A stretch of 64,000 nt of DNA from an uncultured Bacteroidales bacterium (GTDB taxonomy: Bacteria; Bacteroidota; Bacteroidia; Bacteroidales; UBA7960), in contig CAZBGI010000003.1 in the NCBI GenBank assembly GCA_964491395.1, forward strand, positions 39,971-103,970. Reading direction: 5' to 3'. The translations under genes were made by a program, and so were the position numbers. Position 1 is the stretch's first letter, and the number at the start of each line of letters is the position of its first letter. Shown one piece after another: positions 2,438 to 48,549 of this stretch. Below the pieces are notes generated by a model that saw only the letters and a list, made by a program, of their open reading frames with translations, had not been told where the DNA came from and searched no databases.

Positions 2438-3523
2438 TCAGGATACAGTATAATTTTCATAAACACTTCGAATACCTTCTTCGAGTTTTATTTTGTATTG
2501 CCAGTTAAGGCTATTTAATAACGATACATCCAATTGTTTTCTGGGCGTGCCATCAGGTTTTGTTTTATCCCATTGAATTTTACCCTTGAAGCCTGTAATT
2601 TCTTTTACTGTTTCGGCCAGTTGCTTTATAGTCAGGTCGATTCCGGTGCCAATGTTTATATGTGTTTGTTCGAGTTGATTGTAGAGTTTCCCGGCCTGAA
2701 CGTTTTCAACCACATAAATACACGCGTCGGCCATGTCATCAACGTGCAAAAATTCTCTGTAAACCTCGCCCGTTCCCCAAAGCTTAACGGTAATTGGGCC
2801 CATTTCTGGTTTTGAATTTCCGGAAATTCCAAATTCTGCCAAGACAGATAAAATCTCTTGTTCGCTGTTTTGACCCGATATACCTTTTACAGGATTCTTG
2901 TTCAAATCTGCCCTGATCGCGTTCCAATTATGGGTTTCGATACATTTTCCCAGGTGCATTTTTCTGATAAGGGCAGGCAAAACATGCGATTTCTCCAAAT
3001 CATAATTATCGTTGGGCCCATAAAGGTTGGTGGGCATTACCGAAATAAAATTGCTTCCGTATTGTTTAAAATAACTCTCGCACATTTTAATTCCTGCAAT
3101 CTTGGCAATTGCATAGGGCTCATTGGTATATTCAAGAGGGCCTGTCAGCAGGTATTCCTCCTTCATTGGCTGTGGAGCGAGTTTGGGATATATACAGGAG
3201 CTTCCCAAAAACAGGAGTTTTTCAACACCATGCTTTCTTGCTGCATGGATGATGTTGTTCTGGATCATCAGATTTTCGTATATAAATTCTGCCCTGTAAA
3301 TGTTATTGGCCAGAATTCCTCCAACTTTTGCTGCTGCCAGAAATACATAGGCTGGTTTTTCTGCTTCAAAAAATGCATCAACATCGGCCTGAACCCGCAA
3401 ATCAAGCTCATTGGAGGATCGGTAAGTCAGATTGTTGTATCCTCTGTCGGTTAAATTCCGGGCAATTGCAGAACCTACCATACCCTTGTGTCCTGCTATG
3501 TATATTTTTTTGTTTTTTTCCAT
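2438..3523 (-). CDS. fcl: GDP-L-fucose synthase
   Basis: 361-aa ORF with IAGHKGMVGSAI NADP-binding motif and YAIAKIAG (YxxxK). It lies next to gmd and has the long-form insert typical of Bacteroidota Fcl. Confidence 0.9.
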   Translation of the reverse strand: MEKNKKIYIAGHKGMVGSAIARNLTDRGYNNLTYRSSNELDLRVQADVDAFFEAEKPAYVFLAAAKVGGILANNIYRAEFIYENLMIQNNIIHAARKHGVEKLLFLGSSCIYPKLAPQPMKEEYLLTGPLEYTNEPYAIAKIAGIKMCESYFKQYGSNFISVMPTNLYGPNDNYDLEKSHVLPALIRKMHLGKCIETHNWNAIRADLNKNPVKGISGQNSEQEILSVLAEFGISGNSKPEMGPITVKLWGTGEVYREFLHVDDMADACIYVVENVQAGKLYNQLEQTHINIGTGIDLTIKQLAETVKEITGFKGKIQWDKTKPDGTPRKQLDVSLLNSLNWQYKIKLEEGIRSVYENYTVS

Positions 3524-3831
3524 TTGATGTGTATTGTTTTAACCATTACCTTGTTCGTACAACCCCTGACGAACCTCTTTATTCTTGTGAAAGGACTATT
3601 GATTTTTCACAAGACTTGATTATCAATAGATTGATGAATCCTTTCTTTTTTTGGAACGAATCGTCGTACGGTGATGTAATATGTTGATAGGATAGTACCA
3701 TAAAGCCTGCCGGTATGTTTCGGATTATGCTTATGATAGTATCAGTTATCTATCATGAATAGAATACAAAGATGCAGGTGTTTTATAAAAAAAATAATTG
3801 TTAAACCTATTACTGATAATTCTCATCTGTT

Positions 3832-4878
3832 TCAGGAGTTGCGGTCTGTTGCTTTCTGGAAATCTGCTTCAACCATGATTCTTACCAGGTCTTTGAATTT
3901 GGTTTTGGGCTCCCATCCAAGCTTTTGTTTTGCTTTGGAATAATCTCCAATGAGCAGATCAACTTCGGTAGGTCTGAAATATCGAGGGTCTATTCCTACT
4001 ACTTCTTTACCGTCCGATTTACGGATACCTACTTCATTGACTCCTTCCCCTTTCCACTCGATTGCGTCACCCAGTACATCAAAGGCTTCCTCGATATATT
4101 CTCTCACAGTATGCGTTTCATTGGTAGCCAAAACAAAATCTTCGGGTTCATCTACCTGCAACATGCGCCACATTCCTTCCACATATTCAGGTGCATAACC
4201 CCAGTCGCGCTTAGCATCAATATTACCAAAGAGTATTTTATCTTCAAGCCCGGCCATGATCCTTGCCACACCAACACTTGCTTTGCGGGTTACAAAGGTT
4301 TTTCCTCGTCTTTCACTTTCATGATTAAATAAGATTCCGTTGCTTGCGAACAGGTTATAGGCTTCACGGTAGTTCACTACGATCCAGTAGGCATATAATT
4401 TTGCGGCACCATATGGGCTCCTGGGATAAAAAGGGGTCGTTTCTGTTTGGGGCACTTGCTGAACTTTCCCGTATAACTCTGAGGTTGAAGCCTGGTAGAA
4501 TTTTGTTTTAATACCTGTTTCCTTTATGGCATCCAGAAAACGAAGGGTCCCTATACCATCTACTTCAGCGGTATATTCAGGAACCTCGAAAGAGACCTGT
4601 ACATGACTCTGGGCACCCAGATTATAGATTTCATCGGGTTGTATTTTCTCAACAAGTCGGTTGAGGTTACTTGAATCAGTTAAATCACCATAGTGAAGGA
4701 AGAATCTTTCGTTTAATAAATCCTTTTGATTATAGATGTGATCAATCCGAAATGTGTTGAAAGAACTGGCTCTTCTTATGATTCCGTGCACATCATAGCC
4801 TTTCTCAAGTAATAATTCGGTCAGGTAGGAGCCGTCTTGTCCCGTTATTCCTGATATTAATGCAACTTTTTTGTTCAT
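3832..4878 (-). CDS. gmd: GDP-mannose 4,6-dehydratase
   Basis: 348-aa ORF with [22 protein letters not shown] and NHESERRG, all characteristic Gmd motifs. Confidence 0.95.
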
Positions 4879-5163
4879 TATTCGATTTTTTTTAAGATTT
4901 TACAGAAAAGCAAAATTAGACAAAATAATCATGGTACTGACCTATAGGTTGTTATTTACAGTTAACGAATGAGATAATCATGACAAAGTTAAATTTTAAT
5001 AAGAGCTGTATGTTTATTTATCTGTTGAATTAACAATATACCATTGTTTCCTGTTCGATAACTTCTGTTGTTATCAAAATCTTAAGACAGGGACCGGGTT
5101 GAGATTACCTGAAAAACAAGTATATGATTTGGTGGAGAACCGTTTATATAATGAACTAAAAAG

Positions 5164-5199
5164 AAAACCGATTCAGACTTAATCGTATGAATCGGTTTT
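5164..5199 (-). terminator. rho-independent terminator after the sugar transferase gene
   Basis: A 12-bp stem AAAACCGATTCA / TGAATCGGTTTT. On the minus strand it is followed by TTTTCTTTTT. It lies 50 nt downstream of the stop at 5249. Confidence 0.6.
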
Positions 5200-5248
5200 T
5201 AGAACTGCGCTGTACGACCAGACAACAATATTGTTGCCTGTCCTGGCA

Positions 5249-6703
5249 TTATCTGCCGGTTGCAAAAATCATTGTAGATATCGTTTTGAATATCAGTTTA
5301 ATATCCTGGGTAAGAGTCCAGTTATCAATGTAATTGAGATCCATTCTCATCCAATTTTCAAATTTGATATCATTCCTGTGGGGCATTATTTGCCATGTAC
5401 AGGTAATGCCGGGTTTTACTGAAAGTCTTCTTAGCTGCCAACGCTCGTATTGTTTAACTTCCGACTCAAGTGGCGGTCTTGGGCCAATGAGTGACATTTC
5501 TCCTCGTACCACATTGTAAAGTTGAGGAAGTTCATCCAGGCCGGTTTTTCTCAATATTTTACCAATAGGGGTTATCCTGGGGTCGTTTTTTAATTTAAAA
5601 GTAGGACCATCCATTTCATTTTGATCTCTTAGCTTTTCCATCATGGCTTCAGCATTGGTAACCATGGTCCTGAATTTGTAGAGCTTGAACTTTCTTCCTC
5701 TCAGACCCACTCTCTCCTGACCGAAAAACATGGGGCCGTCAGAACTTAGCTTAACCATAATGCCAATCATTAACAAGACCGGGAATAGCAGGATAAGTGC
5801 TACAGAAGAAAACAAAACATCAGTTATAGTTTTAACATCATGAGCCAGTTTCCGGGAGGGTATATCTACCAGGGTAAGTTTTCCTGCTTCATTGAGTGTT
5901 TTGAGCTGAACCTTTTCCGGGGATAATGTTGATACATTGGATTGTACCCTGAATACTACCCCGATTTCATTGGCCAGTCTGGCAATTTGACGAACTTCTG
6001 ATTTGTGAATATGCCTTTTGCAATAAAACACTTCGTCGACAACCTGGCTCTCTAATATGTAAGAAAGGTTTTCAGCACCTGCCATAATAGGTATATCCTG
6101 TCCAAACTTTTCCTTGATGAACCTGGATTGGGTAATAATAGCCCTTATGTTAAAACCCCAGTCTTTTTGGTTAGACAATTTATCGATTATCTGATAAGAA
6201 CAAGAGTCGCCGATAATGACAATATGGCGAAGGTTATATCCATTGATTCGGTACATGCGTAAAAAACGTAAGGTCAGTAAGCGTAAACCCAGGGTTATGA
6301 AAAAGCTAAGATGCACATGAAGGAATATCAGCATCAAGGGTATATCGCTGAGACCAAAAGTATACTTAAGGATAACAAGACTCAGAAAGATAAGAAAATA
6401 CCCCCTGAAAAACAGGAGAACAGCACTGATATAACGCTGTGCACGGGGAAGCATAGCCATGGAAGTAACCTGATAAAACACGAACCAGAAAAAAATAAAG
6501 AAAAAGGTATAAGTAGCGAATTGGTATATGTTGGAATTCCAATTGTTATTCGCAAAAAACAACCATTTGGTTGCTATAAATGAAACAGGGATAATGAGCA
6601 ATACGGTGAAAAACTCAACAATATTAAGCAACCACTTTAAGTCAAGTTTGTATCTTGTCTCAAGATTTTTAAGGTTTTCAAGTATTGTATCTGATTTTAA
6701 CAT
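5249..6703 (-). CDS. polyprenyl-phosphate sugar phosphotransferase (WbaP/EpsB-type priming glycosyltransferase)
   Basis: 484-aa ORF with several N-terminal TM segments. The C-terminal bacterial sugar transferase domain carries KFRTM, DELPQL and LIGPRPP. Confidence 0.85.
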   Translation of the reverse strand: MLKSDTILENLKNLETRYKLDLKWLLNIVEFFTVLLIIPVSFIATKWLFFANNNWNSNIYQFATYTFFFIFFWFVFYQVTSMAMLPRAQRYISAVLLFFRGYFLIFLSLVILKYTFGLSDIPLMLIFLHVHLSFFITLGLRLLTLRFLRMYRINGYNLRHIVIIGDSCSYQIIDKLSNQKDWGFNIRAIITQSRFIKEKFGQDIPIMAGAENLSYILESQVVDEVFYCKRHIHKSEVRQIARLANEIGVVFRVQSNVSTLSPEKVQLKTLNEAGKLTLVDIPSRKLAHDVKTITDVLFSSVALILLFPVLLMIGIMVKLSSDGPMFFGQERVGLRGRKFKLYKFRTMVTNAEAMMEKLRDQNEMDGPTFKLKNDPRITPIGKILRKTGLDELPQLYNVVRGEMSLIGPRPPLESEVKQYERWQLRRLSVKPGITCTWQIMPHRNDIKFENWMRMDLNYIDNWTLTQDIKLIFKTISTMIFATGR

Positions 6704-7035
6704 AATTAAACTAATGTTTGGCGTTTGTCTATTGATTTTACAGCTTTAACCAAATATAATCAAAACTCAGGCAATAAAATATAGCCATATACCCTCATTT
6801 TTGTGTTTCGGTAAACACCTAGAAAACTTAGATGAAAATAGAAATCTGAAAAGTTAAATGACTGATTAAAAACTTTTTTCTGTTCATTATAAGGATAAGT
6901 TCCTTTATAAAGGAAAAAATGCTGGATCGTAATTGAAGTGCAGATTTTATCCAACTAAACTATGATAATATTCGATAGAGTCTAAATGGGAAAGAGTTGT
7001 GCTGATTTTTCAGCCAAATAAATTAACGTTAAATG

Positions 7036-7464
7036 TTAGGATGAAAAATTTCGTATGATATAAACCAGGTAGTCGCCCAGGTATGTAAAGCCTAAGCTTT
7101 TGTAAAGGTTTATTGCAGCTTTATTGTCTTTATGAACCTCCAGTTTAATTTGGATATTTTGTTCTTTGGCAACAGCAATAGACCGTTGTGCCAATAGTCT
7201 GCCAATGCCTTTCCGCTGAAAAGCCGGCATAACGCCGAAGTGATGGAGATGGAATCTGCGACCGTCGAAAGTCATCCATGAGGTAGCTACTATTTCGAGG
7301 TTTTCAGTAAGGGCCACCAGCATTTTACCCCCCAATTCAATACTCTTTTCAATGGTTTGTTGGTTATCTCCTCTCTGAGAGCCTCCCAAACCCGTCCGAT
7401 TCCATAGCTCCGTTATAGCACAATAATCTGATGATTGATATTCTCTGATGAACAAACCTTCCAT
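7036..7464 (-). CDS. GNAT family N-acetyltransferase
   Basis: Acetyl-CoA motif A QRKGIGRLL. I prefer the ATG at 7464 (MEGLFIREYQ...) over the track's start at 7521, which is a TTG. Confidence 0.75.
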   Translation of the reverse strand: MEGLFIREYQSSDYCAITELWNRTGLGGSQRGDNQQTIEKSIELGGKMLVALTENLEIVATSWMTFDGRRFHLHHFGVMPAFQRKGIGRLLAQRSIAVAKEQNIQIKLEVHKDNKAAINLYKSLGFTYLGDYLVYIIRNFSS

Positions 7465-34918: not shown

Positions 34919-35467
34919 ATGGTGCACTACTCCGATGAAAAATTACTGGAATGGGTTCAGGATTCTGATAATCCCGATTATGCTTTTAATTTAATCGTGC
35001 GCAAATACCAGGAGAAGTTATACTGGCATGTAAGAAGACTTGTATTTGATCATGAAGATGCCAACGATGTAATTCAGGAAGTTTTTATCAAAGCATGGAA
35101 AGCACTGGAAAGCTTCAGGGGAGAATCAGGTTTATTTACCTGGTTATATCGTATAGCAACCAATGAGGCGCTTAGTTTTATTAAACGGAAAAAGAGAAGG
35201 TATTTCTTGCCCTGGCAGGATGTAGAAAATACTATGGCTGAGAAACTGGAATCAGACCCTTATTTTAGTAGCAATGAAATACAGAGAAAGCTTCAAAAAG
35301 CCATTCTCCAACTTCCTGAAAAGCAGCGGGTAGTTTTTAATTTGAGGTATTACGATGAAATGAAATATGAAGATATGGCCCGGGTTTTGGATACTTCTGT
35401 GGGAGCATTAAAGGCTTCCTATCATCATGCAGCAAAGAAAATTGAAGAATCTGTAAAAGACATTTAA
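34919..35467 (+). CDS. ECF-type RNA polymerase sigma-70 factor
   Basis: 182 aa with region 2 (DANDVIQEVFIKAW) and a region 4 HTH (YEDMARVLDTSVGALKASYHHAAKKI). Confidence 0.9.
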   Translation: MVHYSDEKLLEWVQDSDNPDYAFNLIVRKYQEKLYWHVRRLVFDHEDANDVIQEVFIKAWKALESFRGESGLFTWLYRIATNEALSFIKRKKRRYFLPWQDVENTMAEKLESDPYFSSNEIQRKLQKAILQLPEKQRVVFNLRYYDEMKYEDMARVLDTSVGALKASYHHAAKKIEESVKDI

Positions 35468-35510
35468 ACTATTGATGGGTTTTGGTGTCTAATACAATAA
35501 TTGCTATACC

Positions 35511-35990
35511 ATGGAAAATAATATAATAAAAAAGGAATTGCAGGAAATAGCCCCTGAACTGGGAAAATTAGAGAAAGAAAATCCTTTTTCTGTTCCCGTT
35601 GATTACTTTGAAAATTTGCCTTCCCAGGTTCAGGAAAGGATAGTGGTAAGCCGGAAAAAAAGTCTTTCACCCGGATTTTACAGCCTGCCCCGATTGGCAT
35701 TTGCAGGCTTTACAGCTGTAATGCTGCTGCTTGCCGGTTATTTGTTCCTGCTCAGAAATCCTTCTGAAACCACAAATGGCTTTGCCGATGAGATCTATAT
35801 GTCTCCGCAGATGGAATGGTATGCCGAATATCAGTCTGATGTATACTATGAAATTATTCTGGATGAATATGAAACCCATGAAATACCGGTGGAAGATAGT
35901 TTTGAGGAGGATCCGGTTATGATGGATTACCTGATTGATTATGGTAATTTTTTTATGGATGCACCCTATGAAGACGATACAATTGATTAG
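35511..35990 (+). CDS. single-pass membrane protein, probable anti-sigma factor
   Basis: 159 aa with one TM segment (LAFAGFTAVMLLLAGYLFLL), immediately downstream of the ECF sigma gene. Confidence 0.4.
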   Translation: MENNIIKKELQEIAPELGKLEKENPFSVPVDYFENLPSQVQERIVVSRKKSLSPGFYSLPRLAFAGFTAVMLLLAGYLFLLRNPSETTNGFADEIYMSPQMEWYAEYQSDVYYEIILDEYETHEIPVEDSFEEDPVMMDYLIDYGNFFMDAPYEDDTID

Positions 35991-36017
35991 AAAAAACTCA
36001 CAAAAGAATACATTGCT

Positions 36018-36488
36018 ATGAAAACATTACAATTCTCCCGTTTTACAGTTTTTATGACCTTGCTGTTTCTAATCCCTGCCATGAGTTATGCCCAACAGAG
36101 AATGGGACAACGACAGGATCGTTACAAGAAAATGGAAGCTCAAAGGATTGCTTTTATAACCCAGGAACTCTCTCTTACTCCTGAAGAAGCCAAGGTTTTT
36201 TGGCCTGTATACATTGAGTACAACCAAAAGAGAAATCAAATGATGATTCGACATCGCGAAGAACGAAGAAGTACTGTCAATATTGACGATCTTTCAGAAC
36301 AGGAATTGATAGAACTGGCTGACGCAGATATCCGAAACATGGAAGAAATGGTTGCTTTACGAAGGGAATATCATCAAAGATTTAAAGAAATCCTTCCTGT
36401 AAAAAAAGTAGTTCAACTCTATGATGCAGAAAGAGATTTTAACCGGAGATTGTATCGGTCAGGAGCTCCCGGCAGAGGTCGGAATTAA
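36018..36488 (+). CDS. secreted helical protein (Spy/CpxP-like periplasmic protein)
   Basis: 156 aa with a signal peptide, charged and helical. It is the third gene of the sigma module. Confidence 0.35.
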   Translation: MKTLQFSRFTVFMTLLFLIPAMSYAQQRMGQRQDRYKKMEAQRIAFITQELSLTPEEAKVFWPVYIEYNQKRNQMMIRHREERRSTVNIDDLSEQELIELADADIRNMEEMVALRREYHQRFKEILPVKKVVQLYDAERDFNRRLYRSGAPGRGRN

Positions 36489-39859: not shown

Positions 39860-40318
39860 AAGTATAAAATTTTGACGCGCAAAGGTAAGCTTTTAGCGCA
39901 ATCTCACGGGGAAAAATATCTTAACGCCTGGAAGTAATTTACATTTATGTTTAGTAGGTCTATGATTCATTGATTATTTACCACATCCATCCACGGGGTG
40001 TGGAACGAATTCCTCACTAATGTTTGGGCAAATGCAAATGAACGTTTTTATTGCTTAAAGAATGTGCTTACCTGAAATATAAATAAATGGAGGATCCCCC
40101 AAAATAAACCACTGATACTGCTTTGATTGGAAAAAGAGAATACACTTTTGTACCGGGAAGAAGTTCAGTGTACAGGCAGTTTTTTCTTCAGAAGAAAAGA
40201 AGAATAATCCAATGGCACGATATTGTATAATTATGAGCATACCGGACAGAAATATAAAACAGCGGTAATAAAAGTAGACAAAAGAGGTATTTTTAACAGA
40301 AAAGAAAACAACCAAAGG

Positions 40319-41179
40319 ATGAGAACGATAATTTTAAGTGACATTACTGAAGAAACCCCGAGTATAATTCCGTATGGCCTTAATGTGGCTAAATATGCAG
40401 AAACAAGGGTAGAAATCCTTCAATATTCAGATCCTAAGCTGGTTCAGGGAACTTATAGCCCGATTTCTGATTCACAAAGCATAACCCCAGGAGAAAAATT
40501 ATCATACGAACAAATATTGCATCGTGAAACCGAAATTGCCAAAGAAAAACTGGACCGCTTACTAAGCAGGGAAGCCTCCCGATTGAACTATCCCTTAAGA
40601 ATAAATACCATCGCTGAGATTACCGATCCTGAAAAAGCTATTGCTGATAAACTTGATGAGTTTGAAAATGTGATGGTGATAACTTCCACCAATCCTTCTC
40701 ATTCGATGGCCAGCGGACTTGATGATGTATTAACTGTACTGCAGAAACTAAATACCAGGATATTGATCATCCCCGCAGGGAAAAAATTTATAAAACCAGC
40801 CAAATGTTGCCTGGTAACAGATTTATCTAAAGAGGCAAGCCAAAACCTTGAAAACCTGTTTTCATGGATAAATCCCCTGGCTGAGAGAATCTATACATCG
40901 GCTGTGATTCATAATGAATCCGGTTCTAACAGCAGCCAGCAAATTGAGCAATGGCAACAAGCCCTAAAGGCTTATTCCCAATTCCTTGCATCAGATTCCA
41001 CTGAAGTTGTTCGGATTGACGAACCGGATGTTGCGTTTGAAAACATTTGCAGACATAAAAGACCCGATATGGTTGTGTACCCCAAAAATGGTAAATCCTA
41101 TTTTTCTCGTTTGTTGTTTTCAGAAGGATATCTCAGGAACTTTTCTGAAATGCTTAACATTCCGGTATTATTGTATTAA
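40319..41179 (+). CDS. tandem universal-stress-protein-like protein (degenerate)
   Basis: ATG at 40319 (MRTIILSD...); the track's extension to 40223 starts at a TTG. Two approximately 140-aa halves each begin with a beta-strand (ILSD / CLVTDLS) and end like USP (ILIIPAG / NIPVLLY). Confidence 0.5.
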   Translation: MRTIILSDITEETPSIIPYGLNVAKYAETRVEILQYSDPKLVQGTYSPISDSQSITPGEKLSYEQILHRETEIAKEKLDRLLSREASRLNYPLRINTIAEITDPEKAIADKLDEFENVMVITSTNPSHSMASGLDDVLTVLQKLNTRILIIPAGKKFIKPAKCCLVTDLSKEASQNLENLFSWINPLAERIYTSAVIHNESGSNSSQQIEQWQQALKAYSQFLASDSTEVVRIDEPDVAFENICRHKRPDMVVYPKNGKSYFSRLLFSEGYLRNFSEMLNIPVLLY

Positions 41180-41233
41180 AAAATTCCCTGCTGACAATGC
41201 AGCAAATTAACAGCTGCCCCCTGAAGGTTGAAT

Positions 41234-41266
41234 ACTGTTGTAGAAATTAATCTACACCACCTGTTG
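41234..41266 (+). repeat. ACTGTTG-N19-CCTGTTG direct repeat (26-bp period)
   Basis: CTGTTG at 41235 and 41261, and again at 41365 (104 = 4 x 26 bp further on). All lie in the spacer upstream of the eRF1-like gene. Confidence 0.5.
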
Positions 41267-41322
41267 GCCCGCTGTATAGCCTGATTCATTGGTTTTTGTA
41301 ACTGCATAATATACCCTGAAAA

Positions 41323-41338
41323 CGGGTTGATTTTTGCC
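41323..41338 (+). promoter_or_regulatory. candidate sigma-54 -24/-12 promoter upstream of the eRF1-like gene
   Basis: CGGGTTGATTTTTGCC: GG (41324-25) and TTGC (41334-37) sit at the spacing of TGGCACG-N4-TTGCW. The -24 half matches only at GG..G. It is about 80 nt from ATG 41418. Confidence 0.3.
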
Positions 41339-41417
41339 CTGATGATTTGCTATAAGTGTTTTATCTGTTGGGTTTTAAACCTACAATCGAGTATTAATTC
41401 ATAAAAATATTATTAAG

Positions 41418-42578
41418 ATGCGTAATTTTTCAGAACATACCTTTAAAGAATTGGCGCAGGTAAGAGCGCCCCATTGTATCTCCATTTTTATACCTACCCA
41501 CCGTGCAGGAAAGGAGGTAAACGAAAAATTAGATAGGATTAATTTTAAGAATCAAGTGCAAAAGGTTGCTGCTGAATTACAATCCTGGCAATTGGACAAT
41601 AAGGAAATAGCGCATTTACTGGAACCTTTAAATGCATTGATAAACGATACGGACTTTTGGAACAATCAGTCTGATGGCCTGGTAGCCTTCAGAAATAGGG
41701 AGCAATTTGAGTATTTTTCATTACCCGTCCATTTTCAGGAGTTTGTATTTGTTTCTGACCATTATTACTTAAAACCCCTGGTGCCCTATTTAAACGATGA
41801 TGGAAAGTATTACCTGCTGGCCCTTACCTTGTCAGGTGTAAAGTTTTATGAGGGTTTTCCTCATCATATCAATGAAGTCGTATTGGATGATTTGCTACCT
41901 GAGAAGCTTCAGGACGTGGTAGGTTATGACTACAAAGACAAGAACCTGCAGATTCGTTCGGGCCAAACCTCTGCCAATGAGGGAGAAGGAATGTATCATG
42001 GTCATGGTAAAGGAAGTGAAGAAGAAAAAACAGAGATTCTTAAGTTTTTCAGGGCCATAAATGACGGATTGATGCAGTTTATTAAGAATCGCAAGCGTCC
42101 TCTTGTATTGGCAGCAGTTGATTACCTGGTTCCTCTATATAAGGAAGTAAATGATTACCAGAATCTGCATGACCATTTCATTGCAGGAAATCCCGAGCAT
42201 GAAGACCCGGTTTTGTTGCATGAGAAAGCCAGGGATTTGCTGGGAGATTATTTTGATAAAGACAGAAAGCAGGCATTATCGGCCTTTGAACAGGCATTGT
42301 CTAATGGAAGAGCCTCTTTTAAAGAAGAGGAGGTGATTGCCGCAGCCTATAATAAGCGTGTGGATACATTGTTTATTAGAAATAATGAAGAGCTGTGGGG
42401 AATTTTTGACGTAGAGAAAAATGCCGTCATTCCCCGGGAGGTTCAACCCGAATTCAAAACCTGCCTGTTGAATTTTGCGGCCATACATACAATTTTAAAC
42501 AATGGAAAAGTCTATTTGCTGGAGGCCGATCAAATGCCTGAACCCAATTCACGCACCAATGCCATTTTCAGATATTGA
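41418..42578 (+). CDS. eRF1/Pelota-like protein (bacterial archaeo-eukaryotic release-factor-like, baeRF-type), GGQ-less
   Basis: 386 aa with no signal or TM segment. N-terminal CISIFIPTHRAG. The central HGHGKGSEEEKTEILKFFRAI aligns by eye with eRF1 HGRGGQSALRFARL. The C-terminal third (VDTLFI...) fits an eRF1 domain-3-like block. Confidence 0.5.
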   Translation: MRNFSEHTFKELAQVRAPHCISIFIPTHRAGKEVNEKLDRINFKNQVQKVAAELQSWQLDNKEIAHLLEPLNALINDTDFWNNQSDGLVAFRNREQFEYFSLPVHFQEFVFVSDHYYLKPLVPYLNDDGKYYLLALTLSGVKFYEGFPHHINEVVLDDLLPEKLQDVVGYDYKDKNLQIRSGQTSANEGEGMYHGHGKGSEEEKTEILKFFRAINDGLMQFIKNRKRPLVLAAVDYLVPLYKEVNDYQNLHDHFIAGNPEHEDPVLLHEKARDLLGDYFDKDRKQALSAFEQALSNGRASFKEEEVIAAAYNKRVDTLFIRNNEELWGIFDVEKNAVIPREVQPEFKTCLLNFAAIHTILNNGKVYLLEADQMPEPNSRTNAIFRY

Positions 42579-42586
42579 TTGCCATG

Positions 42587-42619
42587 ACTGTTGAACGAAA
42601 TACCTGAACGAAACTGTTG
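42587..42619 (+). repeat. ACTGTTG-N19-ACTGTTG direct repeat (26-bp period) enclosing TGAACGAAA x2
   Basis: ACTGTTGAACGAAA-TACC-TGAACGAAACTGTTG. CTGTTG at 42588 and 42614; TGAACGAAA at 42592 and 42605. Confidence 0.55.
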
Positions 42620-42656
42620 TGGTAAGTAACAGGAATTCTTCAGTAGTGGTTGAGAC

Positions 42657-42672
42657 TGGCACGACTCCAGCA
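42657..42672 (+). promoter_or_regulatory. candidate sigma-54 -24/-12 promoter upstream of the small membrane protein
   Basis: TGGCACGACTCCAGCA: a perfect TGGCACG heptamer, with GC of the -12 element at the exact consensus spacing (42670-71). CA replaces TT before it. It lies 75-90 nt upstream of ATG 42746. Confidence 0.4.
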
Positions 42673-42745
42673 TTGATTGATTTCTTGATTATTTCATCCC
42701 TCTTTCAAATTGACAGAAATATTTATCAACCCAAAAAATCAAGTC

Positions 42746-43138
42746 ATGATCTTATTATATCAGATTTTTTTCGCTATATTACTATCTTTATTGGTAGGGA
42801 GTTTTTTTTATTATGTTTTTAAGTATACCGGCCCGTGGGGAAGTTACTGGACTTTTGTTGCCACATTGTTCCTGGCTGGTATGGTAGCCGCAGTCTGGAT
42901 TGAACCTTTGGGCCCTATGATTTACAATTTCGCATGGGCTCCCATTCTGATAGTAATTTTGATTTTTGCCTTGTTTTTGGCTGCTGCTTCGCCTACACGG
43001 TATCGAACCCGAAATCCGGCAAGGAAGAATATGCCTGACCCGGCGCAACAAAATATCCCAGCATTGGCTGTTTCTACTGTATTCTGGGTTTTTATGACCG
43101 CTTTATTAATCACTTTTCTGATTGGTGTTTTCAGATAG
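42746..43138 (+). CDS. small integral membrane protein (about 4 TM), unknown family
   Basis: ATG at 42746 (MILLYQIFFAILL...); the track's start at 42710 is a TTG. Four hydrophobic helices, with a basic loop (RYRTRNPARKN) between the third and fourth. Confidence 0.5.
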   Translation: MILLYQIFFAILLSLLVGSFFYYVFKYTGPWGSYWTFVATLFLAGMVAAVWIEPLGPMIYNFAWAPILIVILIFALFLAAASPTRYRTRNPARKNMPDPAQQNIPALAVSTVFWVFMTALLITFLIGVFR

Positions 43139-43239
43139 CAGGTGAGTAACGCAGCAAAAACCAATGCGTATTCTACTCCCAAAGTGAACTGTCTATAACC
43201 TATCACAGGCTGTTTTGCTCCTGGGCCATGCAGTCCTTT

Positions 43240-44577
43240 TCAGGTATCCATGTCCAGTTCATTGAGTTTATTGTACAAAGTTTTTCTGTCTATTCTCAAT
43301 ATCCTGGCTGCTTCCGATTTGTTTTGCCGTGCTTGCTGCAATGCATTTTCAATAATTTTTCTTTCGGCTTGCCGGGCGGCAATTTTAAGGCTCAGTTCGC
43401 TGGAAGCATCATCAATGAATGATATTTCGGGTGCACTTTTTTGTCGTATCTCTTCAGGGAGGCAGTTGGGGGTTATCTCATGGTCCCGGGCAACAAGAGT
43501 GCTGCGTTTTATTACGTTACGCATCTCACGCAAGTTTCCGTACCATTGGTAAGCATAAAAAGCACTTTCTACTTCCGGCGAGAATTGTTGTACATCTTTT
43601 TGGAGTTCTTTGTTGGCTTGCTGCAAAAAATGGTATGCGAAAAGCATAATGTCCTGGCCTCTTTCGCGCAAAGGAGGAATCTCCAGTTTAAATTCATTGA
43701 TTCTGTGGTAAAGGTCCTCTCTGAATGTACCTTCACGAGCCTGATTGGTTAAATTGCTGTTGGTTGCAGAAATGATGCGTACATCAATATTTATTGTCCG
43801 CGTATCGCCCACACGGGTAATAACTTTCTGTTGAATGGCCCTGAGTAATTTAACTTGTGTCTCATAGGATAGGTTGCCTATTTCGTCCATAAATATAGTT
43901 CCTCCGTTGGCTTGTTCAAAATATCCTTTTTTGTCGCCCACAGCCCCGGTGAAAGCACCTTTTACATGTCCGAACAATTCACTTGCTGCCAGCTCTTTGG
44001 GAATAGCCCCACAATCAATGGCTACAAATTTTTTGGATTTCCGCTCGCTATGCTGATGAATCAGGCGTGCAATGTACTCTTTACCTGAACCGGTTTCTCC
44101 CTGTATGAGTACCGCCATGTTGGTAGGAGCTACCAGCTTTGACTGTTCAATAACATTCTGCATGGCAGTATGCTGCCCCGTAATAAATTCTTGAACATCT
44201 GGATCTTCTCCCGGCTTTTTCTCTATAGCATTTTTTACAATGCTTTTGATATTGTCAGGATGGATAGGCTTGGTTATGTAATCGTATGCACCTGCTTTAA
44301 TACTCTCGACGGCTACCTTAATTTCGGCGTATGCCGTCATCATAACTACTGCTGTCTGGGGCGAAAGCTGATGGATTTTTCTTAGCAAATCCATCCCATC
44401 CATATCTGGCAACCGGATATCGCACAGCACAACATCAAATTCTTCCTTTTTAAGTAGCAACAAAGCAGGTTTGCCTTTATTGGCGGTTTGTGTATTGTAT
44501 CCTTCTTTCTTGAAAAAATTATCCAGCAAACTGGTAATGTAAATATCGTCGTCAATGATCAAAATTTTCTTGCCCAT
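43240..44577 (-). CDS. sigma-54-dependent response regulator (NtrC family enhancer-binding protein)
   Basis: 445 aa with receiver (VLCDIRLPDMDG), an AAA+ domain carrying Walker A GETGSGKE and the sigma-54 contact loop GAFTGA, and a C-terminal Fis-type HTH (EAARILRIDRKTLYNKL). Confidence 0.9.
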   Translation of the reverse strand: MGKKILIIDDDIYITSLLDNFFKKEGYNTQTANKGKPALLLLKKEEFDVVLCDIRLPDMDGMDLLRKIHQLSPQTAVVMMTAYAEIKVAVESIKAGAYDYITKPIHPDNIKSIVKNAIEKKPGEDPDVQEFITGQHTAMQNVIEQSKLVAPTNMAVLIQGETGSGKEYIARLIHQHSERKSKKFVAIDCGAIPKELAASELFGHVKGAFTGAVGDKKGYFEQANGGTIFMDEIGNLSYETQVKLLRAIQQKVITRVGDTRTINIDVRIISATNSNLTNQAREGTFREDLYHRINEFKLEIPPLRERGQDIMLFAYHFLQQANKELQKDVQQFSPEVESAFYAYQWYGNLREMRNVIKRSTLVARDHEITPNCLPEEIRQKSAPEISFIDDASSELSLKIAARQAERKIIENALQQARQNKSEAARILRIDRKTLYNKLNELDMDT

Positions 44578-44725
44578 AGTTCCTGTTTTGTTTTTACGAA
44601 TAATTCCAAATAATTCTGAATAATTTGTTTGAATCTTTCCTTTTTAGACATGTATTATGAAGTAGATCCCCATTCGATTGCTAAATTATATGATTTTTTT
44701 ATCTAAATTCACTCATCTTTAATAA

Positions 44726-47020
44726 TTATAAATCCTTAAGAGCTGTCCGTATAGCCAGAAGGCTTTTATCAATCTCCTCAAGTGCATTATTGATAAGTTC
44801 AGCATCAGGAGCAAAGGATTCTTTTCTGAGGTATTTTTTGTCAATTTTTTTCAGGAGTTTCGTGGCTTTGGCTACTCCCAGCTGTTCCATCGATGGATGA
44901 AGCCTGTGGGCTGCTTCTGCAATACTGCCATAGTCTTCATTTAAGAGCCCTTCCTTTATTTTTTCCTGCATTTGCTGTCCGTTTTCAATGAAGGAATTTA
45001 ACATCAACATCATAAACTCTGTATCTCCGCGGGTTATTTGCCTGAGTTGTGATAAATCATAGGAGCTCATTTCTTTCCCGGATAGTTCTTGTTGCCCGTT
45101 TTTTGCAGGTACATCCTCTTGTAAATCCAGTCCGGAGGTATAAGCAAAAATATGCTTTATCAATGCTTCTTCTTTGTAAGGTTTTAGTATTACCGAATCC
45201 ATGCCGGCTTTAAGATACTCCCTTATTTGTTTTCTTACAGTATTGGCAGTCATGGCAATTACCCTGCTTATGGGTTTATGTGGATTTTTTTTCTCCTTGT
45301 TCCGTATAGAATTTAATACTTCCATGCCATTCATTTCGGGCATGTTGATGTCGAGAAAAATAACCTGATATTTTCCGGGTCGGAATTTTTTTAGCGCTTC
45401 GGCTCCTGAGGCTGCAAAATCTGATTTGATATTGTGCTTTTTTAAAATAATTGAGCCTAGTGTTCTGTTAAGCGGATCATCGTCAACGAAGAGAATTTTA
45501 CCTGCTTTTTTATTCCTGGATGACAGGATAGGTTTGCTTCTTTTGGGAAGGGTTGGATAATTTTTTTCAAATGAAAGGGTGAAGAAAAATTTAGATCCTT
45601 TGCCAGGTGTGCTCTTCACCTGCAACTTACTGTCCATTGCCTCCAGGAGTTCTTTGCTGATGGCAAGTCCCAGGCCACAGCCGGTAAAGCTCCTGTCGAT
45701 CCGGTTGTCTACCTGGTGAAAAGGTTGAAAAATCCGGGTGATCTCCTCTTCTGATATACCAATGCCTGTATCCGAAACTTCAAAGCAGATATCCTGGGTC
45801 GATTGAGTTTGTTTTACAGGAAAACAACGAATGCTTACATTGCCTTTTCGGGTAAATTTTATGGCATTGCCGCCAAGATTGATAAGTATCTGTCGCAATT
45901 TGGGCGCATCGCCCGAGAATGTTCTTTCGTGTAAAGTATCTTCTGCATGAATATAGAAATCAAGCCCCTTTTCTTTATGTTTATGTCTAAGTACCTGGCT
46001 TACAGAATCAAAAACCTCTTGCAAATTAAAAGGGTTGTGTTCTATTTCAATTTTTTCGGCTTCTATCTTAGACAACACAAGGATATCATCAATAATGGAT
46101 AACAAATGATGAGATGCATTGTCAATAATGGTAAGATAATCAGATTGTTTTTTCGTAAGTCGTGTCTGATGGAGTTGGTCAGAGAAACCAATTACGGCAT
46201 TAAGGGGAGTGCGAATTTCATGCGACATCTTGGCTACAAACCGGTCTTTGGCATCACTGGCATCTTCCGCTTTTTCTTTGGATTGCCTGAGCTGCTCCTG
46301 CACCCGTTTTGCATCTGTAATATTTTGTAAAATAACCACGCATTTATGTGTCTTATCCTTTTCGTTCAAGGGAAACATGCGGATAGAAAAGTGATGATTT
46401 TCAGAATGGAATTCTGTACTGACAGGAGTTTCTTCAAATACAATTTTAGCCAGGGATAAAATCATATCTTTTTGTTTGGCCGGAAAATATTCAGTTAGCA
46501 GGGGTGAGGTTACAGAATCTTTAACCCATCCTTGCTTGTGAGATTCACTACCCATTCTGCAATGCACTTGTAGATTTTTATCCACAAGAAACATTTCCAG
46601 GCCGGGCAGGTTTTTGGCCAAAATAGAAAAGTTGCCGGGGGTTAATTGCTCATGGCCCATGTTGCTTGGGAAGGAATCGGAAACGATAGCAGATTGAATA
46701 TAATAAAATGTCTCTTGGGAGGAATCGGGATGGATTTTCCCAAAATTTGAATCAAACGTAATGGCATGGCCTGAAGCATGAATATGATAGATTCTCTTAA
46801 TAATCGGTTGGGGGTTATTGGATTTTAACTCATTTACGATCAAGTTAATATCGTCTTGTTCAATGTTAGAAGTAATAGAATAAATGTCCTTGTTTGCAGG
46901 TAAGGTTTTGGTTTTATAACCCAGCGCCTGCTTTGCAGAGGAATTCATCCACGCAATTTCCCACTTTTCATTGTAAAGAATAACAGGATTGGGAAGCCAT
47001 TCAAGGTTGGTATTATTCAT
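44726..47020 (-). CDS. hybrid sensor histidine kinase (PAS - HisKA - HATPase - receiver - HPt)
   Basis: 764 aa, cytoplasmic. H-box MSHEIRTPLN, HATPase (DTGIGIS, GCGLGLAI), receiver FLDINMPEMNG and an HPt-like AAHRLHPSMEQLG. Confidence 0.9.
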   Translation of the reverse strand: MNNTNLEWLPNPVILYNEKWEIAWMNSSAKQALGYKTKTLPANKDIYSITSNIEQDDINLIVNELKSNNPQPIIKRIYHIHASGHAITFDSNFGKIHPDSSQETFYYIQSAIVSDSFPSNMGHEQLTPGNFSILAKNLPGLEMFLVDKNLQVHCRMGSESHKQGWVKDSVTSPLLTEYFPAKQKDMILSLAKIVFEETPVSTEFHSENHHFSIRMFPLNEKDKTHKCVVILQNITDAKRVQEQLRQSKEKAEDASDAKDRFVAKMSHEIRTPLNAVIGFSDQLHQTRLTKKQSDYLTIIDNASHHLLSIIDDILVLSKIEAEKIEIEHNPFNLQEVFDSVSQVLRHKHKEKGLDFYIHAEDTLHERTFSGDAPKLRQILINLGGNAIKFTRKGNVSIRCFPVKQTQSTQDICFEVSDTGIGISEEEITRIFQPFHQVDNRIDRSFTGCGLGLAISKELLEAMDSKLQVKSTPGKGSKFFFTLSFEKNYPTLPKRSKPILSSRNKKAGKILFVDDDPLNRTLGSIILKKHNIKSDFAASGAEALKKFRPGKYQVIFLDINMPEMNGMEVLNSIRNKEKKNPHKPISRVIAMTANTVRKQIREYLKAGMDSVILKPYKEEALIKHIFAYTSGLDLQEDVPAKNGQQELSGKEMSSYDLSQLRQITRGDTEFMMLMLNSFIENGQQMQEKIKEGLLNEDYGSIAEAAHRLHPSMEQLGVAKATKLLKKIDKKYLRKESFAPDAELINNALEEIDKSLLAIRTALKDL

Positions 47021-47410
47021 GCAATAGAATTTATTAGTATAATTATTTAAAGTAAAAAAATTTACTAACTGTTGTTTGTCGAAAAAATGTGTTGAAATCC
47101 TTCCACATATTTTTCGTATATGTCATTTAAAGCCTTTTGATAAGTGCTAACAATCAGTTTTGTACAGCAAATTTAATTGTTTAGTGAAAAATGGTATGAA
47201 AATCGAAGCTCAAATATTCAAACACATTTAAACACATTAACCTCGTAATTTTTAATTGTTAAATAAATTGAGCGAAGAAAAAACAACATGAATGACAATG
47301 ATTCTATCTTGCACTGAATTACGGCTTTTATACTGATCAAAAAGCCTTTATAAAGAAACGCAAAATGTATTTATTATTATGAGGTGAAAATTAAGCAAAA
47401 TTCTCCGTAT

Positions 47411-48265
47411 ATGCAAATGAAAAGAATGTTAGTTTTATCCGAGCTGAACCAGGTTTCTGAAATTTCGCTTGAGTTTGCTGTTGATCTTGCTGCACATCTG
47501 CGCATAAAGGAGGTTGTGGTACTTAATCTGCTGCTTTCAGCTAACCAACAGGCTCGTGAAATTAGCAATGTTCTGAATCTTGCCATTCCTCCTTACCTGC
47601 AAGAGAAAATAAATATTGATGTTAAGGAAAAACACACAACACTGGTGAAGAAACAAGCCCAAGAGATTGCCCATGAGAATGTGGAAATTTTACCAAGGGT
47701 GGAATACAAAAATGATAATCATTGCATCAATCATTACATGCGTAAATATGAAGCGGGTTTACTCATTTGTGGTAGTCAGGAAAAACCTGCATTTCTGGAA
47801 ATATCCTTTGGGTCGGCGGCAAAAGAAATGTCTGGAAAGATTCATTATCCAATGATAATCCTTACCGATGAACCCGCGAAATCGGAGATTAAATCTATCG
47901 CATTGGCCATTGACTGGAATGACAAGAAACAAGAGGGTATTGATGAAGTCATTGCATTTTCCCGTAAACTCAATGCCTATTTACAGTTGATTCATGTGAT
48001 GGAAACTCCTGCTGACCGTCATCAAGCTCTGGATGCGATGCAAAAACTCGCAAAAAATAAAAATCTCCGTAATTATTCGATCAATTTGCTCGACAATCAA
48101 AATCTTCAGGATGGTTTGGAAAGTTTCGCCCGTAAAACTGGTTCGGATATGATTGCTTTATTAAACCCGGGGAACGGAAAGCTGCACAAAATGATTTTTG
48201 GGGAAGAAATATCACCTTCTGATAGTGGCACCAGGCTTCCAATTTTTATCTGTAAAAGTTGCTGA
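47411..48265 (+). CDS. tandem universal-stress-protein-like protein (degenerate)
   Basis: ATG at 47411 or 47417 (MQMKRMLVLSE...); the track's start at 47384 is a GTG. Two USP-like halves (MLVLSEL... and IALAIDW...), each ending in a strand-rich tail (PMIILT / PIFICK). Confidence 0.5.
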   Translation: MQMKRMLVLSELNQVSEISLEFAVDLAAHLRIKEVVVLNLLLSANQQAREISNVLNLAIPPYLQEKINIDVKEKHTTLVKKQAQEIAHENVEILPRVEYKNDNHCINHYMRKYEAGLLICGSQEKPAFLEISFGSAAKEMSGKIHYPMIILTDEPAKSEIKSIALAIDWNDKKQEGIDEVIAFSRKLNAYLQLIHVMETPADRHQALDAMQKLAKNKNLRNYSINLLDNQNLQDGLESFARKTGSDMIALLNPGNGKLHKMIFGEEISPSDSGTRLPIFICKSC

Positions 48266-48549
48266 GAAATTTTCATGGCTTACATTTCAGCATAAAAGCT
48301 TGCGGGTAAAGTTAATTTATTGCTCAAATACTTCTATATTTGACCCTTGAATCGAATCCTTTTCATGGGAATTCATCTCCATGTCTCTCCGACAGACAGG
48401 AATTTCTTTTTAGGTAATTATTCTATTTTCGGAAATGATTGATTTTCTGTACAATGTTTACGTTTACCAGCCGATAAACCAATAACGATCCTTCGCAGGA
48501 TTTTAATAAACTGATGGCCTTGGCCAGGGTTAAACACAATTTGAAACAC

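Follow-up and report, generated by a model that had tools for sequence, protein, structure and literature searches.

The present analysis deals with a group of six genes in a 64-kb stretch of contig CAZBGI010000003.1 from an uncultured Bacteroidales bacterium (assembly GCA_964491395.1), which as a whole is referred to as the window. The genes form an island at about 39860-48400 (8.5 kb, 13% of the window) and encode a protein related to the ribosome hibernation factor Balon, two universal stress protein (USP)-like proteins, a small membrane protein and a two-component pair of the sigma-54 type. Re-reading of the open reading frames (ORFs) matched the six genes in the order and on the strands given by an earlier model-made reading of this DNA (the original prediction), and its figures of 459, 238, 167 and 390 bp for the spacers upstream of the USP1, Balon-family, membrane-protein and USP2 genes were reproduced. 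The starts at 40319, 41418, 42746 and 47411 were fixed by alignment of the N-termini to homologues. The genes are:

40319 to 41179, plus strand: USP1, 286 amino acids, tandem universal stress protein fold without the ATP-binding glycine motif
41418 to 42578, plus strand: Balon/baeRF-1 family protein (the "eRF1-like" protein of the original prediction), 386 amino acids, predicted ribosome hibernation factor
42746 to 43138, plus strand: small membrane protein, 130 amino acids, four predicted transmembrane segments
43240 to 44577, minus strand: NtrC-type sigma-54 enhancer-binding response regulator with REC, AAA+ and HTH_8 domains
44726 to 47020, minus strand: soluble hybrid histidine kinase with two PAS-like domains, HisKA, HATPase, REC and HPt
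47411 to 48265, plus strand: USP2, tandem USP, 284 amino acids

The Balon-family gene, called baeRF in the following, has 424 detectable homologues, the closest of which are all from Bacteroidales-type metagenome-assembled genomes. A set of 85 loci around baeRF genes was fetched and annotated by BLAST; single related loci are named by L numbers.

The eRF1-like protein belongs to the Balon/baeRF-1 family, as Pfam, a full-length profile match and the fold all indicate. Its match to Pfam baeRF_family7 has an E-value of 1.3e-43 (149 bits against a cutoff of 27.2), baeRF families 3, 6, 8 and 11 match likewise, and the NCBIfam model NF052287 ('AOC03_06830 family ribosome hibernation factor') is aligned end to end with 146.1 bits (9-386 to 1-361). 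A profile of 37 family members found the Balon chain 8rd8_B (PDB 8RD8) over the full length with an E-value of 6.5e-25. The AlphaFold (AF2) model (pLDDT 85) displays a three-domain aeRF1-like fold that is closest to the solved Balon structures: the best Foldseek match is Balon 8rdv_B (E-value 7e-23, TM-scores 0.70/0.74), Msmeg1130 and Rv2629 follow in the ranking (8v9l_z, 8v9k_z), and aRF1, eRF1 and Pelota score far lower (0.25-0.44). The original prediction could name no described system for the gene set; for its eRF1-like protein, at least, a described family does fit. The fold, the lack of GGQ and NIKS motifs and the setting among stress genes are shared with Balon of P. urativorans (AOC03_06830) and its homologues in Mycobacterium tuberculosis (Rv2629) and M. 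smegmatis (Msmeg1130), whereas the identity to Balon is only about 19%, the NF052287 score is 146 instead of 330 bits, and the loop R-S/T-G-Q ... YHGHG is specific to its own family. As judged from these comparisons, the window protein is a new and distant member of a known family of hibernation factors and not an equivalog. Balon binds the A site of vacant or stalled ribosomes together with EF-Tu-GDP, Balon genes are located in stress operons, and the mycobacterial homologue Rv2629 is induced by hypoxia (PMC10901736).

The loop that in aeRF1 carries the GGQ motif, and that corresponds to the lasso loop of Balon, deserves separate consideration. In the window protein both the GGQ motif for peptide release and the NIKS motif for stop codons are absent, and SGQ is found at residues 181-183. 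The family motif at this position reads LQFR-[ST]-G-Q ... [YF]HGHG (residues 177-199), with H194 and G195 invariant in the 37 family sequences, and two family members possess a GGQ tripeptide somewhere in their sequence. It could be argued that the eRF1-like protein is no passive hibernation factor but is made under stress to rescue ribosomes actively or to release peptidyl-tRNA, because R-[ST]-G-Q stands at the GGQ-loop position in 27 of the 37 members, followed by the invariant YHGHG, and because a few baeRF-1 families retain the catalytic Gln (Burroughs and Aravind, PMC6514570). However, Q183 is replaced by K, N or H in two members each, the tripeptide is SGQ instead of GGQ and NIKS is missing, the nearest structures (Balon, Msmeg1130, Rv2629) bind without peptide release, and the loop (174-199) is modelled with low confidence. 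An active release function is thus regarded as highly improbable, and the protein is treated as a predicted hibernation factor.

The response regulator is a complete NtrC-type sigma-54 activator. It comprises the Pfam domains REC, Sigma54_activat, AAA_lid and HTH_8 (E-values 1.8e-69, 3.7e-33 and 1.4e-10 for three of them), the GAFTGA motif at residue 207, Walker A GETGSGKE, Walker B IFMDE and the receiver Asp motif VLCDIRLP; its AAA+ domain also matches RtcR models. The adjacent kinase has strong Pfam matches for HisKA, HATPase_c and REC, while its HPt domain stays just under the cutoff (22.8 against 24.6 bits; 26.7 bits in the L001 orthologue) and its PAS domains are sub-threshold in the window (PAS_9 with 30 bits against a cutoff of 27 in the L026 orthologue). 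The phosphorylation motifs are present as H-box SHEIRTP at 266, REC IFLDINMP at 554 and HPt HRLHPS at 705, and no transmembrane segment is predicted in the kinase. Domains and motifs, with the HPt and PAS cutoffs reached in orthologues, hence bear out the original description of an NtrC-type activator paired with a cytoplasmic PAS hybrid kinase carrying HPt. All orthologues share the PAS-like domain that adjoins HisKA, and an additional N-terminal PAS-like domain occurs in the window and in L009 only. A homologue search with the sensor region gave no match, and the alignment of five orthologues revealed no invariant Cys or His in this region.

Both USP-like proteins had been described as tandem proteins with a degenerate ATP-binding glycine motif, and profile, alignment and model agree with this view. 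USP1 has a marginal Pfam Usp match only (E-value 0.037), its AF2 model (pLDDT 86, pTM 0.87) finds the tandem USPs UspE (3olq), TTHA0350 (3ab7) and Rv2623 (3cis) as top Foldseek matches, and its family consists of 116 homologues of mostly 286 amino acids. In the USP1 family profile, which aligns to MJ0577, the glycines of the G-x2-G-x9-G-(S/T) motif are absent family-wide. USP2 is above the Pfam Usp cutoff (1.9e-10) with a match on its N-terminal domain, and the family alignment spans both halves, indicating two USP-fold domains. According to the alignment with TeaD and orthologues, its N-terminal domain reads G-x2-E-x9-G-S (GSQEKPAFLEISFGS), in which the middle G is replaced by E, and the motif of the C-terminal domain is degenerate as well (PGNGKLHKMIFGEE); the canonical G-x2-G-x9-G-T is kept in the N-terminal domain of the USP2 orthologues from L026 and L027. 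UspE, TTHA0350 and Rv2623 likewise have two USP alpha/beta domains per chain, but the island USPs differ from Rv2623 or MJ0577 in the missing or degenerate ATP motif and therefore resemble the non-ATP-binding UspA-like class. The small membrane protein has four hydrophobic segments in its hydropathy profile and no family match in Pfam, NCBIfam or PADLOC. Its orthologues are found after baeRF or after a gene for a ferredoxin-reductase-like flavoprotein (PyrRedox) in L001, L003, L007, L009, L011, L088, L089, L091 and L096.

Co-conservation of the gene set in relatives had been set beforehand as the point on which the proposal should stand or fall, and the set was found to be co-conserved. The recurring order is baeRF, PyrRedox, the 130-amino-acid membrane protein with four transmembrane segments, (a SpoIIAA-like gene) and dodecin, followed at the same loci by the activator (minus strand), the kinase (minus strand) and a tandem USP (plus strand). 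It is complete in L001, L007 and L009 and partial in L017, L025, L026 and L027. Activator orthologues with 50-69% identity adjoin the baeRF clusters; an orthologue (at least 300 bits) lies within 10 kb in 8 of the 11 loci that have a baeRF of at least 50% identity and at least 9 kb of downstream flank, and in none of 37 distant loci (Flavobacteriia, Cytophagia and others). When the search was started from the activator in a different collection, the USP2-kinase-activator trio was found in all nine loci with enough flank, and the baeRF cluster stood beside it in five of about seven (L091, L092, L093, L096 and L097; not L099 and L100). Only the trio is invariant, with the Balon cluster beside it in most close relatives, and the core of the island does not include USP1 or the membrane protein, whose presence varies. 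Of 19 close loci, only 3 have USP1 next to baeRF; genes of the USP1 type stand before baeRF in L001, L006, L010 and L089, and a different tandem USP is fused into one operon with baeRF in L025, L026 and L032. The PyrRedox, ferredoxin, dodecin and SpoIIAA-like genes of the relatives are absent from the 64-kb window, where the island is reduced. Further genes in the islands of relatives code for ferredoxin, OsmC, encapsulin with encapsulated ferritin, and an M50-CBS peptidase.

Several further observations were made at these loci. In gene order, L089 comes closest to the window (USP1, PRC-barrel, baeRF, membrane protein); between its USP1 and baeRF genes a double PRC-barrel protein is encoded (2013-2759), whose domain type is also known from RimM and other proteins associated with ribosomes or stress. 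Encapsulated ferritin with encapsulin is found in the baeRF island of L088 (7603-8752), and L004 and L088 have a recurring set of OsmC, short-chain dehydrogenase and methyltransferase genes. In L001, at 5050-7220, the gene directly before the USP1-like one encodes Peptidase_M50 plus CBS, an arrangement that mirrors the USP, M50-CBS and, further on, Rv2629 neighbourhood of M. tuberculosis (as at Rv2625c). In L087 (Psychroflexus), at 4291-6703, a LigD module for non-homologous end joining is placed directly upstream of baeRF.

The upstream regions of the island genes share a palindrome, TGT(A/G/T)GA-N6-TC(A/C/T)ACA, which is located 100-220 bp upstream of TGGYAY (-24-like) elements and is here called a putative upstream activating sequence (UAS). 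It was scored out of 12, and matches of at least 11/12 were taken as strong. The copies discussed in the window, for which no strand applies, are:

39999 to 40016: UAS TGTGGAACGAATTCCTCA upstream of USP1, 11/12, 214 bp upstream of TGGCAC at 40213
41239 to 41256: perfect UAS TGTAGAAATTAATCTACA upstream of the Balon-family gene, 12/12, 179 bp upstream of its ATG
46569 to 46586: palindrome TGTAGATTTTTATCCACA inside the kinase coding region, 12/12
47090 to 47107: UAS TGTTGAAATCCTTCCACA in the divergent kinase/USP2 spacer, 12/12

Among relatives, palindromes of at least 11/12 occur in 20 of 45 upstream regions of island genes, as compared to 47 of 900 random 340-nt pieces from the same loci. All five such palindromes of the 64-kb window lie inside the island (39999, 41239, 46569, 47090 and 47479), while 1.55 are expected per 64 kb under the null model. 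The chance that all five fall into 13% of the sequence at random is about 4e-5, a figure that is indicative only and that counts for less in favour of the proposed regulation, because the palindrome model was refined after viewing the window and its relatives, which makes the window statistics partly circular.

An orthologous UAS is present in every kinase/USP2 spacer examined (L001, L007, L009, L026, L027, L092-L096, L098-L100 and L102), and its distance to TGGYAY is 102-105 bp in 13 loci including the window (in L001 the 103 bp were counted by hand from the spacer and the USP2 N-terminus, not by scan) and 163-170 bp in L026 and L027. For baeRF the relatives have the UAS at -171 to -217 from the ATG and 113-138 bp before TGGYAY, and a near-identical baeRF palindrome, TGTAGAAATTATTCTACA, is found in Mangrovivirga (L068). 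The distance is about 200 bp for USP1, with the orthologous sites TGTAGAACAATTTCCTCA in L006 (201 bp) and TGTAGAACAAATTCCTCA in L089 (about 204 bp), and for dodecin it amounts to 205-221 bp in close relatives and to 122 and 134 bp in L025 and L032. The pair of palindrome and TGGYAY is also found in relatives before another tandem USP and before CsbD-like and LEA/apolipoprotein-like genes, targets that would fit a general-stress regulon. Two copies in the window are placed within coding sequences, one at 46569 in the part that encodes the kinase N-terminus and one at 47479-47496, in the 5' end of USP2; a TGGCAT stands at 46762 (plus strand), 193 bp downstream of the 46569 palindrome and antisense to the kinase. 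These coding-sequence palindromes could serve feedback or antisense control, or could be due to chance.

The shared cis element, as the alignments suggest, is the palindrome TGTRGA-N6-TCYACA and not the repeat TGATTCATTGATTATT, which the original prediction had noticed. This repeat is real in the window, where its best copies lie in three plus-strand spacers (39963-39978, 41282-41297 and 42678-42693 with 0, 2 and 2 mismatches) and where 12 matches with at most 3 mismatches compare to 2.6 expected. Despite this over-representation it was rejected as regulon element, since the orthologous spacers of relatives lack it; a site specific to this lineage or a chance occurrence in AT-rich DNA may be the explanation.

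Sigma-54-like promoter elements were assigned to the plus-strand genes as follows:

40213 to 40228, plus strand: USP1 promoter TGGCACGATATTGTAT, perfect -24 and off-consensus -12, 106 bp upstream of the ATG
41346 to 41362, plus strand: probable decayed baeRF promoter TTTGCTATAAGTGTTTT, which reads TTTGGCATATTCTTTTC in relatives (MAFFT alignment), with GG changed to GC
42657 to 42672, plus strand: membrane-protein promoter TGGCACGACTCCAGCA, canonical GG-N10-GC, 89 bp upstream of the ATG at 42746
47192 to 47208, plus strand: USP2 promoter TGGTATGAAAATCGAAG, -24-like element with weak -12, 102 bp downstream of the UAS

The original prediction had reported sigma-54-like elements in two of the spacers. 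Such elements are found before USP1, with TGGCACG at 40213, and before the membrane-protein gene, where 42656-42674 is the best match of a sigma-54 position weight matrix (PWM) in the whole window on both strands. The earlier note's probable baeRF element TTGGTTTTTGTAACTGC has GG-N11-GC, is separated from the enhancer by only about 50 bp and is not matched by any site in relatives, so that it was discarded and the decayed site at 41346-41362 preferred. Most -12 elements are non-canonical. The USP1 promoter has the orthologues TGGCACGGTATTGCAT in L006, TGGCATGGTATTGTAG in L089 and TGGCATGATGTACATT in L001, the orthologous sequences of the USP2 promoter include TGGCACAGAAATAGTT and TGGTATAGTAATAGAT, and L089 has TGGTAT in the equivalent spacer between baeRF and the membrane-protein gene. 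A 16-nt block, TTGGCATATTCTTTTC, stands 45-100 nt before the start of baeRF (or of a USP-baeRF operon) in relatives with 50-76% protein identity (L003, L004, L006, L007, L008, L015, L020, L024, L025, L027, L029, L030 and L089) and reads TGGCAYAATTWTTCC before the baeRF of Cytophagales at about 41% protein identity. TGGCAY likewise precedes baeRF in the cultured Fulvivirga spp. and Mangrovivirga halotolerans. Its size, the invariant GG, the C at -12 and the lack of anything conserved downstream fit a -24/-12 promoter in which the G at -13 is replaced by T. Further canonical GG-N10-GC sites precede the USP of L026 and L027 and the ferredoxin of L009. The palindrome and TGGYAY at conserved distances also agree with the earlier view that the long private spacers fit individual promoters. 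As a side observation, TGGCATACATTTTTC is found at position 2903 of L001, 58 nt upstream of a gene for an iron-containing alcohol dehydrogenase (2961-4052), and this promoter type may also serve metabolic genes near the island.

Taken together, it appears fairly probable that the locus is a stress or dormancy island with a Balon-family hibernation factor as its core cargo, which would be switched on by the adjacent sigma-54 two-component pair. The original proposal of a growth-arrest or hibernation regulon under this pair and its cytoplasmic PAS sensor gains support from the Balon-family identity, the co-conservation and the cis elements. What has been observed directly are the gene content, the folds and motifs, the co-location and the conservation of the cis elements, while the binding partner of the palindrome, the dependence on sigma-54, the signal and the hibernation activity are inferred. 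Several points weigh against the proposal. The Balon-family protein scores far under the equivalog cutoff of NF052287 (146.1 against 330 bits), and no ORF with an RpoN box was found within the 64-kb window; the presence of rpoN in this genome is assumed by us from knowledge of the phylum. No UAS of at least 10/12 is present within 350 bp upstream of the membrane-protein promoter, and no TGGYAY occurs anywhere in the baeRF spacer of the window. The -12 elements are mostly without the canonical GC at the right spacing; in relatives, an invariant TGGYAY is combined with a T-rich -12 whose last base is C. At the related loci no conserved site was detected with a strict sigma-54 PWM, because the -12 is TTTC and not TTGC, and the conserved promoter was seen by reading the aligned upstream regions. 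In Flavobacteriia, baeRF has other neighbours, for example LigD and an AI-2E transporter. Finally, many motif-bearing baeRF loci show no activator inside the available flank, so that the link between palindrome and activator rests on co-location.

Alternatively, the cis elements could have been misassigned: a different dimeric regulator, such as a member of the Crp/Fnr family, would then use the palindrome, the TGGYAY block would not be a sigma-54 promoter, and the activator would have different targets. Crp-family sites read TGTGA-N6-TCACA, which the palindrome half-sites resemble, and the GC of the -12 element is usually missing or one base off. The negative result with the strict PWM and the motif-bearing loci without an activator in the flank also speak for this reading. 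On the other hand, the palindrome lies 100-220 bp before TGGYAY and 170-330 bp before the start codons, which is the geometry of an enhancer and not the -41.5/-61.5 of Crp/Fnr, and its outer spacing is TGT-N12-ACA instead of the TGT-N10-ACA of Crp. The conserved block of 16-17 nt has the size of a -24/-12 promoter, the pair keeps its fixed distances in every kinase/USP2 spacer beside an activator orthologue, and canonical GG-N10-GC is found at some sites, among them that of the membrane-protein gene in the window. Such a misassignment therefore seems quite improbable to us.

In the window, the sequence TTTGCTATAAGTGTTTT is the probable decayed remnant of the conserved baeRF promoter: it stands at -71 from the ATG, inside the -49 to -88 range of the relatives, and about 109 bp from the UAS, just below their 113-138 bp. 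A TGGGTT at 41368 also has the expected distance but no alignment support, and it was left as an alternative. Since the -24 GG reads GC, the Balon gene may have weakened or lost its direct sigma-54 control; the sequence of the decayed promoter is identical in an independent Logan assembly, which shows 4 differences to the window in 16,793 positions, none of them within the spacers discussed. Hence, one could assume a partial regulon, in which control by the pair is limited to USP2, the divergent gene that always adjoins it, with USP1 and the membrane protein as possible further targets, while the Balon-family gene has escaped to a housekeeping-type or read-through promoter. The missing TGGYAY would agree with this assumption, as would the restriction of the invariant part to the trio, the trio without baeRF nearby in L099 and L100, and the rare neighbourhood of USP1 and baeRF. 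However, a perfect palindrome is kept 179 bp upstream of baeRF, which would be surprising for a gene with a long history outside the regulon, and both the enhancer and TTTGGCATATTCTTTTC are still present in the close relatives L006 and L089. We regard an escape of the Balon gene as rather unlikely for these reasons; under the preferred reading of a Balon-centred island, the gene is in this genome probably weakly sigma-54-dependent, read through from USP1, or transcribed from another promoter.

The following mechanism can be envisaged for the Balon-centred island. The soluble hybrid kinase would sense an intracellular cue via its PAS domain(s). Redox or energy state is our guess for this cue, because the islands of relatives hold ferredoxin, the ferredoxin-reductase-like flavoprotein, dodecin, OsmC and encapsulated ferritin. 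Phosphate would pass from the kinase His via Asp and the His of HPt to the receiver domain of the neighbouring NtrC-type activator, which would then bind the palindromic enhancers 100-220 bp upstream of the sigma-54-type promoters (TGGYAY at -24 and a variable T-rich -12). Its GAFTGA-containing AAA+ domain would open these promoters one by one, and individual opening of each promoter would account for the long private spacers. The predicted targets in the window are USP1, the small membrane protein and USP2, and ancestrally also the Balon gene. During arrest, the Balon homologue would sit in the A site and keep the ribosomes parked, and the tandem USPs without ATP motif and the membrane protein are predicted to act as accessory stress proteins.

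Comparable gene sets are known from other bacteria. The DosR/DevR regulon of M. tuberculosis includes its two-component system among the targets, together with Rv2629, tandem USPs such as Rv2623 and ferredoxin, and it is related to growth arrest. The present island resembles it in the two-component system among the predicted targets, the Balon homologue and the tandem USPs, with ferredoxin in the islands of relatives. However, DosR belongs to the NarL type, depends on sigma-70 and has a DNA box of its own, whereas the island regulator is an NtrC-type AAA+ sigma-54 activator, and DosS/DosT are haem-GAF kinases in contrast to the PAS hybrid kinase with HPt relay. The analogy is one of function only, and neither the regulators nor the sites are implied to be homologous. 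Sigma-54 circuits by which the translation apparatus is maintained or silenced under stress have precedents in the RtcR-RtcBA system for RNA repair, which is sigma-54-dependent, and in the linkage of rpoN and hpf in Proteobacteria. They differ from the island in that RtcR is a CARF-domain activator and not of the phospho-receiver type, and in that hpf shares a transcript with rpoN instead of being switched on by an enhancer-binding protein; the island contains neither an RtcB nor an HPF gene, and RaiA/HPF, Hsp20 and RtcB were not seen as neighbours.

The Balon paper, the baeRF-1 paper, a 2025 survey of sigma-54 regulons, a 2025 preprint on hibernation-factor evolution and a full-text search yielded no account of Balon in Bacteroidota being placed under a sigma-54 two-component circuit. 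Balon was described in 2024, and its trigger is known only as "stress", or as hypoxia in mycobacteria. The present locus and about 30 related loci offer a testable circuit made of sensor kinase, activator, enhancer sequence and promoters, which, if true, would connect ribosome hibernation with a signal in one of the major phyla; hibernation strategies in Bacteroidetes have been called unappreciated (2025 preprint). More tentatively, since we hold it for possible but would not yet count on it, the island might reflect a dormancy or general-stress regulon across Bacteroidota, in which a phosphorelay-fed sigma-54 activator with TGTRGA-N6-TCYACA enhancers and the lineage-specific -24/-12 promoter variant TGGCAT-N5-TTTC (-13 G replaced by T) directly switches on a Balon-type factor together with USPs without ATP motif, dodecin, ferredoxin and its reductase, and CsbD- and LEA-like proteins. 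This would be a sigma-54 counterpart of DosR and the first defined signalling input for Balon expression. The loci compared here show a recurrent module of USP, Balon and ferredoxin that the mycobacterial dormancy regulon has as well, but with an entirely different regulator. Moreover, a non-canonical -12 is suggested for sigma-54 promoters of Bacteroidota, and its consideration would improve regulon prediction in the phylum.

Some minor observations concern the surroundings of the island and its distribution. No membership in a defence system was detected for the island by PADLOC, an Rfam scan of the spacers gave no meaningful match, and scans for sigma-70 and terminator consensus sequences remained at background level. 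Unrelated housekeeping or envelope genes flank the island: EamA and a transglycosylase of the PBP1 type on its upstream side, and downstream of it a large secreted protein that resembles peptidases. At 34919-36488 of the window, some 4 kb upstream of the island, a gene for an ECF-type sigma factor (Sigma70_r2/r4_2) is located, followed by two small unannotated ORFs that possibly represent an anti-sigma pair. Many of the closest relatives (L019-L024, L028, L069 and L092-L098) bear the labels CSSed, T3Sed and SL_*KL_*_SED, which we take to denote soda-lake sediment metagenomes; if so, the island would be typical of Bacteroidales from haloalkaline, anoxic sediments.

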